Shown: positions 5,782-14,983, counted from the stretch's first letter. The stretch is DNA of 29,970 nt from Candidatus Bathyarchaeia archaeon (GCA_050010515.1 JBEKKX010000030.1:1-29970); one strand, 5' to 3'. Notes: a model not told the origin generated them from the sequence alone. Made by a program: numbers and translations.

Positions 5782-6789
5782 TTAACGCGTTAAAGCAATC
5801 CATAGATGGTCTGAGACTGGCCTTGGCAGCATCTCTGCCTTGTCGTCTTTATGCATGAGTATTCGTTTGTTGGGGTTTATGTTGAATTCGCCTATGACGT
5901 CAGCGTAAATGTGCTCTAGGCTTAAGGCATCGATTATTTTGTTTGCGGCTTCTGGCTGTGCAGCAATAAGCAATGCGCCTGAACTAATCAGTTGCAAAGG
6001 GTCAATTTCATAATACCTGCAGATTTTGGCAGTTTCAGGTTCAACCGTAATTTTTTCTTCAAAAACCCGTACGCCTAAGCCAGCAGCGTCTGCCATTTCG
6101 TGGATTCCGTTTAGTATTCCGCCTTCTGTTGGGTCATGCATGGCGTGGACTCCACCTGTTCTGTAAGCCGTTAATGCGTCTTTTACTACGCTTATTTGGC
6201 TGTAGAAGCGTTTGGCGCTCTCAAGTATGCTCAGAGTAAAAACTTTTTTTAGTTGCTCTTCGCGGTCGGAAGCTAAAATTGCCGTGCCTTCAATTCCAGC
6301 GGTTTTTGTTAAAATCAGCTTGTCGCCTGCTTTGGCGCCTGCAGCAGTAACGTATTTGCCTTTTTCAGTTAAGCCCATGACGCAGCCAACAACAATAGGA
6401 TTAGCCAGCCCCGGAGTTGACTCACAATGCCCTCCAACAATCGCAATGCCAAGCTCCTTAGCGGCAGCGTTCATTTGAGTGCTTATGGTTTCAACGATTT
6501 TGCTGTCAGCGTCCTCTGGCAAAAGCAAGCATGAGAAGAAAAAGGCGGGTTCAACCCCAAACGTAGCAACATCATTAGCGTTAATGTTGATGGCTTCCCA
6601 TCCGATACGTTCAACTGCACCAGTGATTGGATCCATGGAAACGATGGCGTTCTTGCTTCCAACATCTAACACTGCACCATCTACTCCAGCAGCGGGACCC
6701 AAAACTACTTCGCTACGTTCGGCGCCAAGGTTTTTGAACACTACTTCTTTTAGGATGTCTATCGGGATTTTTCCAGGCGGCAGTTTCAT
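5782..6789 (-). CDS. AIR synthase (PurM/HypE/ThiL/SelD superfamily) protein, ATP-dependent, substrate unknown
   Basis: SMDPITGA, NANDVATFG, IVGGHCE, AKAGDKLILTK and AMHDPTEGG motifs; lacks the HypE C-terminal PRIC. Confidence 0.9.
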   Translation of the reverse strand: MKLPPGKIPIDILKEVVFKNLGAERSEVVLGPAAGVDGAVLDVGSKNAIVSMDPITGAVERIGWEAININANDVATFGVEPAFFFSCLLLPEDADSKIVETISTQMNAAAKELGIAIVGGHCESTPGLANPIVVGCVMGLTEKGKYVTAAGAKAGDKLILTKTAGIEGTAILASDREEQLKKVFTLSILESAKRFYSQISVVKDALTAYRTGGVHAMHDPTEGGILNGIHEMADAAGLGVRVFEEKITVEPETAKICRYYEIDPLQLISSGALLIAAQPEAANKIIDALSLEHIYADVIGEFNINPNKRILMHKDDKAEMLPRPVSDHLWIALTR

Positions 6790-6816
6790 GATCTTAATCT
6801 CTGTGAAATCTAGCTT

Positions 6817-7362
6817 TTAAGTTGTTGATACAATTCTTGACCTGTAGCTTCTCCAAGCTTCTGGAAGTCGTTTGCGAAGTATAATGGCTATTGGAATCCC
6901 CACTATTCCACCCGCGGCTATTTGCAGTATGTTGAAGGGCACTTCGCCCAGCGCTGCCCAGCGTAATGACAACCCGAAAAACTCAGCTAAGAAATACCCC
7001 GATACCATTTCGGCACCTGCTATGACCACTGCACTGATGTCTCTTTTTCGGCTTAGCCTGTTTGATATTAAGCCTGCGATGAGCCCTTCAGCGCCTTTTA
7101 TGATGAGTGTGAACGGTGCATAGACGAAGTATCCGCTGGATACATCGGATATTGCGGAGCCAACCCCGCCGGCGAATCCGCCGACGATTGGACCGAAAGT
7201 GAGGGCGGTGGCGAAGATCATGATGTCTCCGAAGTTTAGGTATCCTTTTGTGGCTGGAATGGGAATTTGCACAAGGAAGGTTGCGACTGCTACAAGGGCT
7301 GCCATGACTCCTGCTTGTGCAATTATGAGGGTGATTCTTTTTCTGTCGGGTTGAGGTTGCGT
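6817..7362 (-). CDS. ECF transporter S component (HmpT/PdxU-like)
   Basis: AALVAVAT..IPIPATKGYLNFGD..GSAISD..GY..YAPFTLIIKG; about 6 TM segments. The frame is open 19 codons above ATG 7305 to an ACG at 7362 behind GGTGA, so the start is uncertain. Confidence 0.85.
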   Translation of the reverse strand, partial: TQPQPDRKRITLIIAQAGVMAALVAVATFLVQIPIPATKGYLNFGDIMIFATALTFGPIVGGFAGGVGSAISDVSSGYFVYAPFTLIIKGAEGLIAGLISNRLSRKRDISAVVIAGAEMVSGYFLAEFFGLSLRWAALGEVPFNILQIAAGGIVGIPIAIILRKRLPEAWRSYRSRIVSTT

Positions 7363-7375
7363 TTTTTCACCTTGG

Positions 7376-7418
7376 TAGTTGCAACTTTAGTATAGTTGCA
7401 TCTATACTATCAAATAAG
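7376..7418 (-). promoter_or_regulatory. Promoter with palindromic operator for the S-component/AIRS operon
   Basis: TAGTATAG-TTGCAT-CTATACTA at 7388-7409 (22 bp, one mismatched pair), a second half-copy TAGTTGCAACT at 7376-7386, and TATA-like CTTATTTG (minus strand) at 7411-7418. Confidence 0.7.
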
Positions 7419-7435
7419 CGTTACGGAACCAACAA

Positions 7436-8845
7436 TCACAAAAGCAGCTGTATATCGTCGAATGCTGCCAGAACCTTCCTTCCACGCTCAGTGATTCGGA
7501 AGAATTTCTTGCCGTTCTCCTCATAGCCGACCACCAACCCCTTATCTGACAGCTCGTTGAGATGTTGATAGACAGCGGCGCGCGTCATTATCTTGCCTAA
7601 TTGTTTCCATAAATCATAACCGTACGTGTCCTTTTCACTGAGAATTTTAAGGATTTTTTGTTTAGTGCTTACTGCAAGCCCTAAGCCTGCGGTTTTCTGT
7701 TTTTTCGTCATCGCCTGAAGAACATCGGTCGCTTTTAGCCCGCTCCCCGTGATAAGGCAGACTACGCTGCTGTCGCTGGAAATTCGGTCAACTTTCAGTT
7801 TCTGCAGTGCAGCCACCGTGGCTGAGCTGGCTGGTTCAGCGAAGACTCCTTCAAGCTTAGCTACTTGAAGCTCTGCAGCCAAAATATCAGCGTCTGAGAC
7901 AGTTAAAGCTAAGCCGTTTGATTCTTGAATCGCTTTAATTGCTAATTCGCTTTGTAATGGCTCGCCAACGAGAATAGCTAAGGCACGAGTGGATGGGTTG
8001 CAGGATTTTGAAGATTTTGAAGATTTTGAAGATGATTGTTCTGTTAGTTCGTTGACTATTGGGGCACAGCCTTCTGTCTGGACTCCTATCATTCGTGGCA
8101 ACGAGCGGGTTAGCCCTAACTTTTTGAGTTCTTTAAACCCTTTCCAAAGAGAATAGATGGTCCCGCCGCTTCCCATCGAAACTATAACCCAATCAGGAAC
8201 CGCAAACTGCTCATTAATTTCGAACGAAATAGTTTTTTGAGCTTCAACAACCAACGGGTTAAGTTCGGCAGTCGCTTGATACCAGCCTGTTTCCTTGGCT
8301 AAGGCAGAGGCCTTGCGGATGGAGTCATCCACAATGTCGCCTGATTCCTCGATGACGGCGTCGTAAGCAATCATCTGCGCCAGTTTTCCAACATCAACAA
8401 CTTTGGGAACCAAGACGTGGCAAATCAGTCCTGCTTTTGCGCCGTAGGCAGCTAAAGAAGCGCCCATGTTCCCGTTAGTGGCGCATACTATTGCCTCAAA
8501 GCCTTGGTCAATCGCGTTTGATGTCAAGAAAGCTGCTGCGCGATCTCTGTAAGAGTTTGTGGGGTTGCGTGTTTCATCCTTCAAATAAAGGTTCTTTAAC
8601 CCGACGGCTTTGGCAAGTCTTTCAGCCTTATGCAATGGTGTTCCGCCCTCTCCCAAACTGACCATGTGCTTAACAGGCGGAAGCATCTCTCTGTATCTCC
8701 AGAATCCCTGCTCTCTCGAAAATTTCAATTTTTCAGCTTCAGGTAAGTCAGCTATGAATTCCAGTGTGCCGCCGCATTTTTCACAGTTGCTTCTCAACGG
8801 GTAAACTGGAAGCTCTGTACCGCAGTGAATGCATCGAAGCATCAA
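7436..8845 (-). CDS. Threonine-synthase-like PLP fold-II protein lacking the catalytic Lys, fused to a C-terminal PadR-like winged helix
   Basis: N-terminal CxxC..CxxC, SLGEGGTPL, NPTNSYRDR (canonical NPTGSFKDR), EPASS, ITGSGLK, then ILKILSEKDTYGYDLWKQL..AVYQHLNELSDKGLV..FFRITERG. Confidence 0.9.
   Translation of the reverse strand: MMLRCIHCGTELPVYPLRSNCEKCGGTLEFIADLPEAEKLKFSREQGFWRYREMLPPVKHMVSLGEGGTPLHKAERLAKAVGLKNLYLKDETRNPTNSYRDRAAAFLTSNAIDQGFEAIVCATNGNMGASLAAYGAKAGLICHVLVPKVVDVGKLAQMIAYDAVIEESGDIVDDSIRKASALAKETGWYQATAELNPLVVEAQKTISFEINEQFAVPDWVIVSMGSGGTIYSLWKGFKELKKLGLTRSLPRMIGVQTEGCAPIVNELTEQSSSKSSKSSKSCNPSTRALAILVGEPLQSELAIKAIQESNGLALTVSDADILAAELQVAKLEGVFAEPASSATVAALQKLKVDRISSDSSVVCLITGSGLKATDVLQAMTKKQKTAGLGLAVSTKQKILKILSEKDTYGYDLWKQLGKIMTRAAVYQHLNELSDKGLVVGYEENGKKFFRITERGRKVLAAFDDIQLLL
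8004..8033. repeat. In-frame 9-bp tandem repeat (GATTTTGAA)x3
   Basis: Three exact copies plus GAT; encodes SSKSSKSSK on the minus strand. Confidence 0.9.
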
Positions 8846-8992
8846 GTTTTATTCCCCACTACCTGCATGTTGGAAGAGCCTTTTATGTTATGCCATTTGC
8901 TGATTAGTTCTGTTCTTTTGGAGCAAAGCATTTAGGAGAGGAAAATCTAAATGGGAGTTCACCTCAAAATAGACGATTATGAGTGATAATTG

Positions 8993-9370
8993 ATGAGCGT
9001 AAGAGAAGACCCAATAAAAATGCATAAAGAAGCTAATTCGCTGATGGAAAACGGCAAATACGTTGAAGCAAGAGACATTTTCATCAAAGTGGCAGACCTA
9101 TACTATAAAGGCCAGAACTATTTCGGGTCAGCAGAAATGAACTATAAAGCTGGCGAATGCGCCTTTGCCCTCAAAGAATACGAGAAAGGCGTGGAATTTT
9201 TTATGAAGTCCGCTGACATCTCGTTTAATAAGGGATTCGACAGGTACGGCGTTAGCGCGCTTGATTATGCACGAGACTGCCAAAAAGCCTTAGGCAACAC
9301 AAAGGAAGTTGAAGAGCTAAGCAAGAAAATTAAAGAAGTCAAAGAAAAACTCGAAAGCTCCGGCTTCTAA
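8993..9370 (+). CDS. Small TPR-like all-helical protein
   Basis: Repeated motifs GKYVEA..F..VA.LY, YKAGECAFALKEYEKG and YARDCQKALG. Confidence 0.8.
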   Translation: MSVREDPIKMHKEANSLMENGKYVEARDIFIKVADLYYKGQNYFGSAEMNYKAGECAFALKEYEKGVEFFMKSADISFNKGFDRYGVSALDYARDCQKALGNTKEVEELSKKIKEVKEKLESSGF

Positions 9371-10835: not shown

Positions 10836-12545
10836 TTGAATTTCACGTATTTGCTTTCATCTTTCAAATCCTTCTGTGAAATCCTAGACAAAGTTGAAGC
10901 GACGAAAAAACGGCTAGAAATCATAGATTTAACTGCAAACTACCTGAAAACGCTCAGTTCAGAAGAGATTGAGCCTGCAACTAACATGATGGTTGGCAGA
11001 GCATTCCCAAAATACAGCCAAAAGTCGCTTGATGTAAACTGGTCAACCCTGACCCGAGTTTTAGAGCGTATAAGCCACTTTGATTGGAACCTTTTCCGCC
11101 AAGCCATGGCAAGCACAGGTGACATAGGTTCGGCTACAAAAGCAGTGCTTGAGAAAACTAAAGCAAAAAAGCAAACGCAGCTAACGCACAAATCCTTGAC
11201 CATAGTGGAAGTCAGGCGAGCGCTAGAAGCTATCGCTCAAACCACAGGCGCAGGTTCAAGAACCAAAAAAGAACGCCTAATAACAAGCCTACTAAGCCAA
11301 GCTACCTCAGTTGAAGCCAAATACCTCGTCAAAATCTTCACAGGAGAAATGCGCATAGGACTCCATGAAGGCTTAATGGAACAAGCCGTTGCCAGAGCCT
11401 TCAACGTTCCAATAAAGAAAGTGCAGCACGCCAGCATGGTGCTAGGCGACATAGGTGAAGTGGCGGCAACACTCAAAACCCGAGGCATAGAAGGCTTGAA
11501 GAGAGCAGGCTTCAGCGTTTTCAGGCCTGTAAAACTCATGCTTGCCCAAACAGCCCAAACAGTAAACGAAGCATTGGCAGAGCATGGTGGCAGAACTGCT
11601 TTCGAATACAAGTACGACGGTGCAAGGGTCCAAATTCACAAGCAAAACGGCTCGGTAGAGGTTTTCAGCAGAAGACTAACTAATGTGACAGAAAGCCTCC
11701 CAGAAATCGTTGAAATCGTAAATCGCAACATTAAAGCGCAGTCAGCCATCGTTGAAGGCGAAGTAATTGCGCTTGATAGAGCTGGTTACCCGATTGCGTT
11801 TCAACATTTAATGCGCCGGTTCAAACGAATCCGCAATGTCACAAGTATGGTGCAGAGAATTCCCTTAACTCTTTACTTGTTTGATGTTCTCTACCTTAAT
11901 GGTGAAAGCCTAATCATGCTGCCATACTTGCAACGCAGGCAAATCTTGGCGCAGAATGCTGGGGAAATTGCCTTATCCAAACAAATAGTCACCGATAAAA
12001 TCGATCAAGCGGAAGGTTTTCTCAAAGAAGCAATAGCCGCTGGGCACGAAGGACTAATGGCAAAACAACTTGATAGCCCCTACACGCCTGGAAGCAGAGG
12101 AAAAAAGTGGCTGAAAATCAAAACAGTCCTCGAACCCTTAGACCTCGTAATTACCGCCGCTGAGTACGGCTATGGAAGGCGAAAAGGTTGGCTTTCCGAT
12201 TACTACTTGGCAGCAAGAGACCCCAAAACGGGTGAATTTTTGAATGTGGGTAAAACTTTCAAGGGTTTAACCGATGCTGAAATCATAGAGATGACCAAGC
12301 AGTTAAAGGCTTATGCAGTTGGACAGGAAGGGCATCGGGTAATAGTTATTCCTAAAATCGTGGTTGAGGTGGCTTATAATGAGATTCAGAAAAGCCCAAA
12401 ATACAAGAGCCAAATGGCGCTGCGGTTTGCCCGAATCAGCCGCATAAGAGACGATAAAACTCCCCAAGAAGCTGACAGTATTGATAAGGTTAGGGAAATA
12501 TATGAAAGACAGTTCCGCATAAAAGGCAAATATAACACTGAATAA
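10836..12545 (+). CDS. lig: ATP-dependent DNA ligase
   Basis: EYKYDGARVQIH (motif I), EGEV, FDVLYLNG, EGLMAK, WLKIK, LRFARISRIRDDK. Confidence 0.97.
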   Translation: MNFTYLLSSFKSFCEILDKVEATKKRLEIIDLTANYLKTLSSEEIEPATNMMVGRAFPKYSQKSLDVNWSTLTRVLERISHFDWNLFRQAMASTGDIGSATKAVLEKTKAKKQTQLTHKSLTIVEVRRALEAIAQTTGAGSRTKKERLITSLLSQATSVEAKYLVKIFTGEMRIGLHEGLMEQAVARAFNVPIKKVQHASMVLGDIGEVAATLKTRGIEGLKRAGFSVFRPVKLMLAQTAQTVNEALAEHGGRTAFEYKYDGARVQIHKQNGSVEVFSRRLTNVTESLPEIVEIVNRNIKAQSAIVEGEVIALDRAGYPIAFQHLMRRFKRIRNVTSMVQRIPLTLYLFDVLYLNGESLIMLPYLQRRQILAQNAGEIALSKQIVTDKIDQAEGFLKEAIAAGHEGLMAKQLDSPYTPGSRGKKWLKIKTVLEPLDLVITAAEYGYGRRKGWLSDYYLAARDPKTGEFLNVGKTFKGLTDAEIIEMTKQLKAYAVGQEGHRVIVIPKIVVEVAYNEIQKSPKYKSQMALRFARISRIRDDKTPQEADSIDKVREIYERQFRIKGKYNTE

Positions 12546-12563: not shown

Positions 12564-13613
12564 ATGATTAAGGTGGATGCAGCAGAAAAGAAAGTGTTCG
12601 CTAAAAAATTCTACAGTCGCCAAACAATACTAAAAGAACTGGGCGAAAAAGGACAGCGGCAACTAGCAAAATCTAAAGTTGCAATTGTCGGCACCGGAGG
12701 ATTAGGGACCGTTTCGTCACTCTATCTTGCTTTAGCTGGCGTCGGCTACATACGCTTAATCGACCAAGACACTGTAGAAACCCATAACCTGCATAGGCAA
12801 ATCCTGTACAACCCAGACGACTTGCACTATCCAAAAACTGAAGTTGCCGCAAAAAAACTAGAAAAACTCAACCCACTCGTAAAAGTTGAAGCAATTCCTG
12901 AAAATGTGAACGCAAGCAACGTTGAACGCCTTTTGCAAGGCGTGGACTGTGTTGTTGACGGTTTAGATAACATGGTGACTCGTTACCTTGTTAATCGTGC
13001 CTGCGTAAAATCAAAGATTCCATACGTTTTCGGCGCAGCCATCGGTATCGAAGGCAATCTCTCCGTGTTTGCTCAGCCTGAAACTGGATGCTTGGAATGT
13101 TTGATGCCTAACCTTTCCGATACGGATTTACTAACGTGTAGCACTCGTGGAGTCCTTGGAGCAACAACTGGAATAATCGGCGCTTTGCAAGCCATGGAAA
13201 CCATAAAGCTCTTAGCTGGAATCGGCTCAACTTTGAAGGGTAAACTGCTGGTCTGCGACTTCAGCGACATGGATTTCACCAGCATAGACATTTCGAAAAG
13301 CACCCGCTGCCCAGTCTGCCACGGCGACTTATCTTCAGTTGCTGGCGGCGAACGGCTGGTTTGGCTTTGCGGAAGAGACACAGCTAACATTAACCCTGAA
13401 AAACCGTTAAAACTGAACCTTGAAGAAGTTTACCCAGCTGTAAACAAGCAGTTTAAGGTTCGCTTGAAGTCGCGTTTGGCTCTTATGTTCAATTACAAGG
13501 GTTATGAAGTTAGCCTGTTCAACGGCGGACGCATGCTCATAAAAAACATTACAAGCGAACGGGAAGCGCTAAAGGCGTATAGGGAAATAATCAGCAAGCT
13601 AAATGCTTCTTAG
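12564..13613 (+). CDS. ThiF/MoeB (E1-like) adenylyltransferase with C-terminal extension
   Basis: YSRQ, GTGGLG, NLHRQ, DGLDN, CLEC and CPVC zinc pairs, LCGRD C-terminal domain. Confidence 0.92.
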   Translation: MIKVDAAEKKVFAKKFYSRQTILKELGEKGQRQLAKSKVAIVGTGGLGTVSSLYLALAGVGYIRLIDQDTVETHNLHRQILYNPDDLHYPKTEVAAKKLEKLNPLVKVEAIPENVNASNVERLLQGVDCVVDGLDNMVTRYLVNRACVKSKIPYVFGAAIGIEGNLSVFAQPETGCLECLMPNLSDTDLLTCSTRGVLGATTGIIGALQAMETIKLLAGIGSTLKGKLLVCDFSDMDFTSIDISKSTRCPVCHGDLSSVAGGERLVWLCGRDTANINPEKPLKLNLEEVYPAVNKQFKVRLKSRLALMFNYKGYEVSLFNGGRMLIKNITSEREALKAYREIISKLNAS

Positions 13614-13639: not shown

Positions 13640-14983
13640 CTATAAAAAATGAAAGCCCACGCTCAGTTCAGCCCACAGTACCGCTGAAGCAACAGCCACC
13701 TGTGCGATGGACAGTATGGCACCGACTTTGAGGTATTCTTTGAGGCTGATGTTGACGCCTTTACGCCGCATGGTTTCCAGCCACATCACAATCGCCAAGG
13801 AGCCTAACGGGAAAAAGTGGGGTCCCAGATTGTTTCCGATGATGTTGCTGAAAATCAGTCCCGTTAGGGTTGTTCCAGATGCGCCGATGTGCTGGATGCT
13901 TAGCAAGCCGAGGATTGTCATTGGCCAGTTGTTCATGAAGCTTGCCCCGACGGTTACAACCATGCTTGGCGCGAAAATCCCCAGTGCAGAGGGCAGCTTG
14001 CTTGTCGCTAGGAGAGCGGAGGCTAGCAGGTTTGTGATGCCCGCGGTTTCCAGCCCTTGGACGACGAGGAAAATGCTAAACATGAAGAGCACGATGTCCC
14101 AGTTGATGTCCCTTGCCAAGCCCCTGAGCCCTTTCCTCTCGCCGTTCACCGAGCCGTTCCACTTCAACGTAAACCAGTAAACCCCTATCAGAAACGCTGC
14201 CCCACTGCAGATGACTATCGAGACTGGGAACCGATTCAGAGAGGTCAGCAGGTAGCCTATGTCGATCGCAACCAGCGTAGCCAAGCTTACCCTCAACAGA
14301 AGCGGCGAAATAACCTGTTTTCCCTCGGTTAAGGAATCCGCAGCTTTCACGTCATAGGCTTTAGGAATCTGCTTCCTGAAAAACAGCCAAAACAGCAGTA
14401 GGCTGCTGAGAATAGTCGCCACTGCCACGGGTCCCATGAAGATCAGGTGGTCGATGAAGCTGTACTTGAAGAAATCAGCACTCAAGATGTTGATGGGGTT
14501 GCTGGTGATCAGCGGCATCGCAGCCGTATCCGCCATCAAGCCCGCGCTGAAAAGATATGCCAACTTACCCTTCGAGTCTATGCCCAGGCAAGTTACGATC
14601 TCCAAGACGATGGGGGTTAAAATCAAAACGGCGCTGTCATTCGCAAAAAGGATGCTTACCGCCGCCGTGAGAAGGGAAACGTAGAAGAAAAGCCGCAAGC
14701 CGTTGCCGCCAGCCATCTTGACGACGCGCAGTGCCGCCCACTTAAAGAATCCCATCGCATCCAAAGTCACCGACAAGGCTACAATGCCAAGGAACGCCAA
14801 CGCGGCATCCCAAATGTTGAGGAAGGACTGTGCCGCCTGCCCCAAACTGACCGTGCCTAGCAGAAGCGACGCAACGGCGCCGATTCCAGCCGCGTAGCCT
14901 AGTCGCAAGCCGAAGGGGCGCTTAATCATCAGGAAAAGCGTCACTACGAAAACGGCTACTGCAGCAACTGTGATGTAATCCAC
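13640..14983 (-). CDS. arsB: ArsB-family arsenite/anion permease
   Basis: LDAMGFF, FANDSAVLILTPIV, ADTAAMPLITSNPINI, MNNWP, NLGP..PLGSLA..MW. Confidence 0.85.
   Translation of the reverse strand: MDYITVAAVAVFVVTLFLMIKRPFGLRLGYAAGIGAVASLLLGTVSLGQAAQSFLNIWDAALAFLGIVALSVTLDAMGFFKWAALRVVKMAGGNGLRLFFYVSLLTAAVSILFANDSAVLILTPIVLEIVTCLGIDSKGKLAYLFSAGLMADTAAMPLITSNPINILSADFFKYSFIDHLIFMGPVAVATILSSLLLFWLFFRKQIPKAYDVKAADSLTEGKQVISPLLLRVSLATLVAIDIGYLLTSLNRFPVSIVICSGAAFLIGVYWFTLKWNGSVNGERKGLRGLARDINWDIVLFMFSIFLVVQGLETAGITNLLASALLATSKLPSALGIFAPSMVVTVGASFMNNWPMTILGLLSIQHIGASGTTLTGLIFSNIIGNNLGPHFFPLGSLAIVMWLETMRRKGVNISLKEYLKVGAILSIAQVAVASAVLWAELSVGFHFL

Follow-up and report, generated by a model that had tools for sequence, protein, structure and literature searches.

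The window analysed here is the whole of a 29,970-nucleotide (nt) stretch of DNA from a Candidatus Bathyarchaeia archaeon (GCA_050010515.1 JBEKKX010000030.1:1-29970), whose genome (G000 among our genome labels) comprises 2.38 Mb in 66 contigs with a completeness of 98.5%. Between positions 5,782 and 8,845 it carries, all on the minus strand, three co-oriented genes, which encode a fusion of a threonine synthase (ThrC) fold with a PadR-type DNA-binding domain, the S component of an energy-coupling factor (ECF) transporter, and a protein of the PurM/AIRS fold. An earlier note on this DNA had described the trio together with a 22-bp palindrome lying between a TATA-like box and the S-component gene, and all of this is recovered at the same positions, the palindrome as inverted repeat I3; the distances it gave, 26 nt from the fusion stop to the palindrome and 27 nt from the S-component stop to the AIRS start, are both exact. 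The features of this putative vitamin B6 regulon, including a fold that would sense pyridoxal 5′-phosphate (PLP), are as follows.

7436..8845, minus strand: regulator gene, 469 amino acids (aa), in which a flexible linker joins a ThrC-derived fold-type II domain, the putative PLP sensor, to a PadR-type winged helix at the C-terminus
8546..8548, minus strand: codon AGA of Arg100, at the site of the ThrC PLP Schiff-base lysine (ThrC structure alignments)
7448..7669, minus strand: winged helix-turn-helix (wHTH) DNA-binding domain, residues about 393-466 (PF03551 and AlphaFold2 (AF2) model)
7436-7438, minus strand: stop codon TGA of the regulator
7410..7417, minus strand: TATA-like box TTATTTGA, putative promoter of the S-component gene; TTTAATA or TTAAAATA in orthologues
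7388..7409, no strand assigned: predicted operator, a 22-bp palindrome with the consensus TAnTATAGTT-nn-AACTATAnTA, abutting the TATA-like box
7371..7392, no strand assigned: further, incomplete copy of the operator, which shares 5 bp with the first and contains the perfect 10-bp core AGTTGCAACT (7377-7386)
6817..7362, minus strand: ECF S-component gene of PdxU2/HmpT type (PF07155), open from an in-frame ACG at 7360-7362, 181 codons
5782..6789, minus strand: PurM/AIRS-fold gene, 335 aa (PF00586 and PF02769), candidate B6-vitamer kinase

Read along the coding strand, the space between the first two genes thus holds the stop codon, the TATA-like box, the palindrome, its partial second copy and a GGTGA. 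The arms of the palindrome are complementary at 10 of 11 positions. The partial copy scores 10.6 bits and its centre lies 17 bp from that of the first site (direct repeat D1, inverted repeat I1), and two related loci (L038, L039) carry two full overlapping sites with the same spacing as in the window.

The evidence that follows comes from the comparative genomics of metagenome-assembled genomes, among which related genomes are non-independent observations; a class survey covered 201 genomes and a phylum survey 301, and absence is to be read as not found in those searched. The fusion is full-length in 61 of the 201 class genomes (at least 48% identity, E <=1e-130), and the loci of 40 of these were taken as a sample with 7-kb flanks. 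In 33 of the 40 loci (32 clear, 1 weak) the gene immediately after the fusion is the S component, and a palindrome matching at least 14 of the 20 specified positions of the consensus stands between the two genes in 31 of these 33, usually straight after TTTAATA. Where an insertion parts the fusion from the S component (L043, L047, L048, L055), the palindrome remains beside the S component, and a convincing site was absent from all seven fusion loci of the 40 that have no S component. A weight matrix built from 32 orthologous sites, from which the window site was excluded, ranks the window operator at 26.8 bits as the top match in the entire 2.38-Mb genome; the next matches, at 17.6, 16.2 and 15.7 bits, all fall inside open reading frames (ORFs), and a reversed-sequence control reached 14.8 bits at most. 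The scan for further palindromes that the earlier note had proposed came out negative, with no second operator site found in G000, and hence the regulon in this genome would amount to one operon. The secondary matrix matches at C37:14496, C4:55147 and C6:10331 were rejected as regulon members, being inside ORFs. A 12-mer, TAGTTGCAWCTA, allowing one mismatch, was also tried as a site model and proved unenriched (18 and 17 matches vs 11 and 20 for the control), and the 22-bp matrix was used instead.

Genomes without the regulator lack the operator as well. In eight same-genus genomes the S-component-AIRS pair is present without the fusion, and none of them has an intact palindrome ahead of the S component; in six of the eight the best score over a 5.5-kb stretch is at most 5.4 bits, while one genome holds a decayed operator remnant of 13.7 bits at -170 and another a 15.5-bit match inside the AIRS ORF. 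Beyond the class, the phylum search recovered full-length fusions in families f34, f40, f45, f51 and f55. Family f34 includes complete genomes, and all five of its loci that were inspected have Arg at the position of the Schiff-base lysine, the same S-component family directly downstream and a palindrome with an AAGTT..AACTT core. The linkage and the motif, whose conservation in relatives the earlier note had left to be checked, therefore extend across the phylum, and on these computed patterns the palindrome is the operator paired with the fusion regulator.

The regulator itself is a composite protein. Residues 62-367 match PF00291 (PALP, E 1.8e-73) and residues 398-460 match PF03551 (PadR, 43.8 bits vs a cut-off of 27, E 2.6e-11). 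An AF2 model based on 30 orthologues has a mean predicted local distance difference test (pLDDT) score of 85.4, with a disordered linker at residues 370-392 followed by helices and a beta-hairpin wing at residues 389-468 (pLDDT 75-90). Threonine synthases are the best folds found for this model by Foldseek (6NMX, TMt 0.85, root-mean-square deviation (rmsd) 2.0 Å), and phmmer aligns the protein with the ThrC structure 2ZSJ at E 1.4e-60. In the alignment to 2ZSJ and 2D1F the ThrC motif SFKDRG becomes NSYRDRA, Arg100 replacing the Schiff-base lysine, and a canonical thrC with the lysine is encoded elsewhere in the genome (C4:15390-16520), so that the name "pseudo-threonine synthase" chosen in the earlier note turns out to be apt. 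Because of this replacement the regulator should be unable to form an internal aldimine. The glycine-rich phosphate loop, the GN of the STGNT loop and the EPAS motif line the cofactor site of fold-type II enzymes. Counterparts of all three are kept in the regulator, as GSGGT (GNAGN in ThrC), TNGN and EPAS, respectively, and its N-terminal Cys4 ribbon (C5, C8, C21, C24) is invariant.

A PLP-domain tree groups the 67 fusions, without exception, in a single clade, separate from six canonical ThrC sequences with a support of 1.0. At the lysine position, members of clade 1, to which the window regulator belongs, have Arg (24/41) or Lys (17/41), all 18 members of clade 2 have I/V/L/M, and all six canonical ThrC sequences have Lys. 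The Lys-bearing members of clade 1 belong to families f18 and f15, are nested among Arg-bearing lineages, and may bind PLP covalently. In six of the 40 loci (L053-L058) a canonical thrC stands divergent to the fusion, four of them within about 630 nt, with about 290 nt in L058 and about 3 kb in L053. Since no operator lies between thrC and the fusion in these loci, the adjacency is probably a remnant of the tandem duplication that produced the regulator. The regulator gene also holds a 9-nt tandem repeat at 8005-8034 (residues about 272-281), which is translated into Ser-Ser-Lys units in a surface loop modelled as disordered (pLDDT <50); near-identical homologues of 468, 465 and 462 aa fit strain variation in the number of these units.

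Public sources annotate the regulator as a threonine synthase. Taken at its word, this annotation would make the fusion a working enzyme with a decorative tail and the palindrome a terminator or the site of another factor, and it can point to a score of 206.1 bits against TIGR00260 thrC, above the cut-off of 167.1, and to a palindrome that starts 26 nt past the stop codon. Yet the Schiff-base lysine is Arg and a canonical thrC is found elsewhere in the genome, the PadR tail scores above its cut-off, and the palindrome behaves as a site belonging to the S component, which it follows when the genes part, being missing from fusion loci without an S component and lost along with the fusion in the same-genus genomes; it is moreover A+T-rich, with no T-run after it. 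We consider this explanation hardly credible. The same name is borne by the model PRK05638, against which the regulator scores 407.1 bits, below the cut-off of 421. The top phylum matches of this family (NCBIfam NF004170, loci L129-L133) have Arg at the lysine site, a C-terminal wHTH and the S component downstream, and the two best matches (G372, G240) contain one in-frame TGA each. As these two are among the five f34 loci, the name "threonine synthase" is probably wrong for the regulator family.

A tie of this family to vitamin B6 that does not depend on the transporter comes from its sister clade. The clade-2 ThrC-wHTH fusions are about 490-500 aa long and 35-41% identical to the window regulator, and they share a different palindrome, ATATATAAG-N6-CCYATATAT, in the intergenic space that precedes their own genes; the motif occurs in 37 of the 201 class genomes and is far commoner than a control pattern. 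By tblastn, motif and regulator are divergent to pdxS-pdxT in five genomes, all of family f20 (G022, G091, G095, G161, G173), and to the window's S-component family in eight genomes, and in four more the motif precedes the S component without an adjacent regulator. The pdxST-linked regulators occupy two separate places within clade 2 of the PLP-domain tree. Because the same operator type serves pdxS-pdxT in five genomes and the S component in eight, the regulator family is tied to B6, and by its genomic placement one regulator type with one operator type is seen to control either the PLP synthase or the importer. Eleven two-mismatch matches of the clade-2 motif (L104-L108, L110-L112, L118, L119, L121) were taken as chance, there being no fusion, S component, AIRS, PdxS or PdxT within about 1.5 kb of them, and the neighbours of the clade-2 regulators of G004, G103, G137, G002 and G034 are uninformative. 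At one further locus (L080, G130:C66) the clade-2 regulator and its palindrome are divergent to a GNAT acetyltransferase and an EamA-family transporter, in a genome that also has the clade-1 module.

Profile searches place the second gene of the trio with the S components of HmpT/PdxU type, which the earlier note had named as importers of B6 vitamers. The protein matches PF07155 at E 1.3e-35 (123.4 bits vs a cut-off of 26.7), and a profile of 25 orthologues finds the Protein Data Bank entry 4HZU chain S at E 4e-26, the next matches being at E 1.4 and 2.3; the single sequence reaches only 0.008 against RibU (3P5N). It therefore clusters with the B6 carrier PdxU2/HmpT and has no other strong solved relative. 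In the published excerpt on the Lactobacillus brevis protein of that structure (PMC4860826), the mass of the extracted substrate matched pyridoxamine, and PF07155 includes both PdxU and PdxU2 according to a passage of PMC9997740. Mapping the pocket residues by hand on an alignment with HmpT, using invariant family columns, shows that of the six conserved residues E41, H84, Q87, Y120, N140 and Q143, three are identical (Tyr104 for Tyr120, Asn125 for Asn140, Gln128 for Gln143) and one, Glu41, has a conservative counterpart, Asp or Glu, in the orthologues. About half of the orthologous S components (L043-L058 and others) carry an insertion of ~80 residues after the fourth helix region (alignment columns 113-194), which brings them to about 245-255 aa vs about 165-185 aa and is probably two extra membrane helices. 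Energy for the S component can come from an ecfA-ecfA′-ecfT operon at C50 of the same genome, in which a CbiQ/EcfT gene comes after two ABC ATPase genes.

A sensor made from ThrC might also be expected to respond to O-phosphohomoserine, threonine or homoserine at the former substrate site, with the S component importing a compound linked to that pathway. The STGNT loop of ThrC binds substrate, and its GN is kept in this ThrC duplicate; the divergent thrC within about 3 kb in six of the 40 loci and the Lys of 17 of the 41 clade-1 members would likewise suit such a regulator. Against it, a scan from -600 found no operator-like site between thrC and the fusion in any of the six loci, the other targets of the regulator family are pdxS-pdxT, and the nearest characterised relative of the S component carries a B6 vitamer, ECF S components being described in an excerpt of PMC7299338 as carriers of trace micronutrients. 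We regard sensing of an amino-acid intermediate as very unlikely.

The gene content of the class fits a need for B6 uptake. PdxS was found in just 29 of the 201 genomes, G000 not among them, which suggests that most Bathyarchaeia rely on external B6. Neither PdxS nor PdxT was found in G000 by tblastn with G095 queries, and for PF08543 (PdxK/ThiD) the genome gave a sub-cut-off match alone (E 6.6e-5). With no PdxS/PdxT and no PdxK/ThiD-type kinase, the S-component-AIRS operon would be the organism's route to PLP. The S component is present in 165 of the 201 genomes, the PdxS-positive ones lacking it in 14 of 29 cases and the PdxS-negative ones in 22 of 172.

The third gene encodes a protein consisting of AIRS and AIRS_C alone, with the Phos_pyr_kin domain absent. 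It was rejected as ThiL, HypE, SelD or PurM, as it stays below every equivalog cut-off (thiL 99.6/184, hypE 107.3/251.6, selD 76/125, purM 40/236), and the true ThiL (C13), HypE and SelD are encoded elsewhere in G000. A C-terminal cysteine is the hallmark of HypE, and the window protein ends in ...ALTR without it. Seventeen NCBIfam families are matched, none of them named for CblS, and the protein atlas gives just "AIR synthase family protein" clusters. Computed positions link the gene to the transporter: among the 117 genomes with both places listed, 48 have AIRS less than 1.5 kb from the S component, and these comprise 28 co-directional pairs with the S component first, 17 convergent pairs, two divergent ones and one with AIRS first. 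At L126 (G007:C63:1520-4251) an AIRS orthologue stands directly upstream of pdxS (NF003215, 497 bits) and pdxT on the same strand, and the window's S-component family was not found in that genome.

G000 contains a second pairing of this type. On the minus strand of contig C36 (L122:911-2609) a ThiT gene (TIGR02357, 147 bits vs a cut-off of 108) is followed by an AIRS paralogue of 332 aa, 33% identical to the window protein. Of 63 related loci, 61 have ThiT immediately before this paralogue and on its strand, and the other two have it within 600 nt; the paralogue makes a candidate thiamine kinase, whose product would go to ThiL at C13. The two pairings, of AIRS with a PdxU2-type carrier and of its paralogue (AIRS2) with ThiT, indicate that pairing a vitamin S component with a PurM-fold protein recurs as a design in this lineage; it is plausible that the window protein is a trapping kinase, which fits both this design and the absence of PdxK.

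Salvage of the thiamine precursor hydroxymethylpyrimidine (HMP) deserves consideration at this point, since HmpT-type S components were first assigned to this pyrimidine according to the excerpted text of PMC4860826, in whose simulations one conserved residue of the pocket also shows a strong interaction with HMP. On this explanation the S component would import HMP, a ThiL-like AIRS protein would phosphorylate it in place of the missing ThiD, and the regulator would sense an HMP phosphate or a thiamine phosphate. It would agree with the lack of a PF08543 ThiD/PdxK-type kinase in G000, with thiL as the second-best NCBIfam match of the AIRS protein (99.6 bits), and with a pocket in which two of the six HmpT residues are changed. 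The substrate extracted from HmpT nevertheless matched pyridoxamine (PMC4860826, in part), the sister clade places a shared operator type before pdxS-pdxT in five genomes and before the S-component family in eight, thiamine is already served in G000 by the ThiT-AIRS2 pair and a true ThiL, and the sensor is derived from a PLP enzyme whose cofactor-site motifs are kept. We judge HMP salvage to be unlikely.

We consider it rather likely that the locus is a one-operon vitamin B6 regulon with a ThrC-derived sensor-repressor, which could operate as follows. The first gene would encode a transcription factor that arose from a duplicated threonine synthase and is not an enzyme, its ThrC domain, devoid of the Schiff-base lysine, acting as a ligand sensor. 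The likeliest ligand is PLP or another phosphorylated B6 vitamer, and PLP or pyridoxamine 5′-phosphate (PMP) would be held non-covalently. The linker would couple this sensor to the PadR-type winged helix, and a dimer, the state to be expected from ThrC and PadR folds, would bind the 22-bp palindrome beside the TATA-like box. In its ligand-bound form the dimer may block transcription initiation of the S-component-AIRS operon, and B6 scarcity would free the site. The S component would then import a B6 vitamer by way of the shared EcfAA′T module encoded elsewhere, and the PurM-fold protein would most likely phosphorylate, and thereby trap, the imported vitamer. In a wider and more doubtful scheme for Bathyarchaeia, AIRS1, as the window protein may be called, with its PdxU2-type carrier would trap B6 and AIRS2 with ThiT would trap thiamine, replacing the missing PdxK and thiamine kinases.

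Several observations weigh against this reading. AIRS occurs in 177 of the 201 class genomes (E <=1e-30), among them PdxS-positive families and genomes that have no S component, and it follows the S component in just 11 of the 40 fusion loci; in the 17 genomes where the two genes are convergent they cannot be co-transcribed. The usual targets of activation by PurM-family enzymes are amide or carbonyl oxygens, phosphate or selenide, and phosphorylation of an alcohol would be unusual for them. In the regulator, the 17 of 41 clade-1 fusions with Lys indicate that the loss of catalysis is not universal in the family. Repression, as opposed to activation, is read solely from the position of the operator, and ligand, DNA binding and transport are all points that we infer. 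In the carrier, the early assignment of HmpT to HMP (PMC4860826, excerpted) is joined by two invariant changes in the archaeal S components, His84 to Lys70 and Gln87 to Glu73; because of these and of the ~80-residue insertion in many relatives, the preferred vitamer could differ from that of HmpT. The distribution of PdxS is equivocal too: 12 of the 14 PdxS-positive genomes without the S component belong to one family (f11), which leaves the contrast with PdxS-negative genomes suggestive only, and the other 15 PdxS-positive genomes have the S component as well.

A further difficulty concerns the start of the S-component gene, where no ATG, GTG or TTG was found in frame ahead of transmembrane helix 1, and this allele may be poorly expressed. 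The first in-frame ATG, at 7305, is taken to be internal because the orthologues have about 20 more residues, and where the G151 orthologue has its ATG, the window allele has the in-frame ACG (7360-7362). Just upstream lie the GGTGA (7367-7371), a GTG that is one base out of frame (7368-7370) and a run of six A (7362-7367). An assembly error in this run was rejected, as contigs from three other runs of different studies reproduce the A6 allele without differences; one minor divergent contig has A7, which brings the GTG into frame. Expression of the S component may thus depend on ACG initiation or on slippage. The two RNA runs that were located contained just 5% of the sampled words.

Elsewhere in the window, a ThiF-family E1-like protein (12564-13613) and an ArsB/CitMHS-type permease (13640-14983) lie a few kb off, and family f1 conserves two neighbours of the fusion, a DNA ligase (10836-12545) and a small TPR protein (8990-9370); no link to the regulon was seen for any of these. 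In distant families the fusion is accompanied by genes for a RIO kinase, Lsm, a methyltransferase, a flavoprotein, an HD protein, SSB, IlvD, acetyl-CoA synthetase and an FrhB-like protein, a set rejected as a functional clue because it is uninformative.

A passage of PMC9997740 lists B6 transporters and the pathway gaps of de novo PLP synthesis as unsolved problems, and the system proposed here offers a testable regulator, operator and target set conserved across the phylum. If the reading is true, a PLP-enzyme fold would have become a PLP sensor for a second time, independently. The reading would also correct the widespread PRK05638 annotation "threonine synthase", which would inflate amino-acid prototrophy calls in metabolic reconstructions, and the AIRS protein would be a concrete candidate for the B6 kinase apparently missing in most Bathyarchaeia, whose dependence on external B6 bears on cross-feeding in peat and sediment communities. 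We hold only as a doubtful, joint proposition that Thermoproteota sense B6 with a transcription factor built from a threonine synthase and that their S-component-linked PurM-fold proteins form a new class of vitamin kinases. The literature searched, which covered few subscription journals and no supplements, held no description of a ThrC-derived or PadR-type archaeal B6 regulator, and no transcription factor for archaeal B6 metabolism of any kind turned up in it.

Comparison with known systems places the parts of this module among familiar ones. With ThrC (2ZSJ, 6NMX, 1V7C) the regulator shares the fold at the TMt and rmsd given above and 34-39% identity; unlike ThrC it has no Schiff-base lysine, bears a C-terminal DNA-binding domain and shares its genome with a separate canonical thrC. 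With PadR repressors, such as that of Bacillus subtilis, it has in common the winged helix of that family and an operator of palindromic form, which accompanies the regulator. PadR proteins have a short C-terminal helical effector domain, whereas the effector domain of the regulator is a whole enzyme fold of 380 residues. The B. subtilis protein exerts negative control over its target, and its effector and operator recognition have been studied (PMC5728393, excerpted text). The S component is akin to L. brevis PdxU2/HmpT as a member of the same PF07155 family, of which that protein is its sole strong solved relative, and differs from it by Lys70 and Glu73 and, in many relatives, by the long insertion.

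Some further systems are alike in logic. CblS has a PurM fold, and the architectures of RbkR and ThiR supply the archaeal precedent, enzyme domains being reused in both as vitamin sensors. In CblT-CblS an S component is paired with a kinase for the imported vitamin moiety, CblT being the transporter and CblS the kinase for alpha-ribazole in the portions cited of PMC6461909 and PMC6167548.

The closest parallel is PdxR, a PLP-responsive bacterial regulator of the MocR type that acts on pdxST, pdxK and pdxU. It likewise uses a PLP-enzyme fold as sensor, with a linker leading to a winged helix, is often transcribed divergently from its targets, and has a regulon of pdxST and/or a PF07155 B6 transporter (PMC5320631, in excerpt); the last point holds here for the regulator family and not for the window locus itself. 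The two differ in build, PdxR combining an N-terminal GntR wHTH with a fold-type I aminotransferase whereas the archaeal regulator combines a fold-type II ThrC with a C-terminal PadR domain, and in most archaeal members the Schiff-base lysine is replaced. MocR is moreover "not present in Archaea" in the wording of one passage of PMC5320631. An enzyme-fold vitamin sensor on a winged helix is known in kind, and the kinases proposed within this system may form a new class. In our reading the archaeal regulator would be a functional counterpart of PdxR and an independent invention, which by descent is neither a MocR protein nor a threonine synthase.

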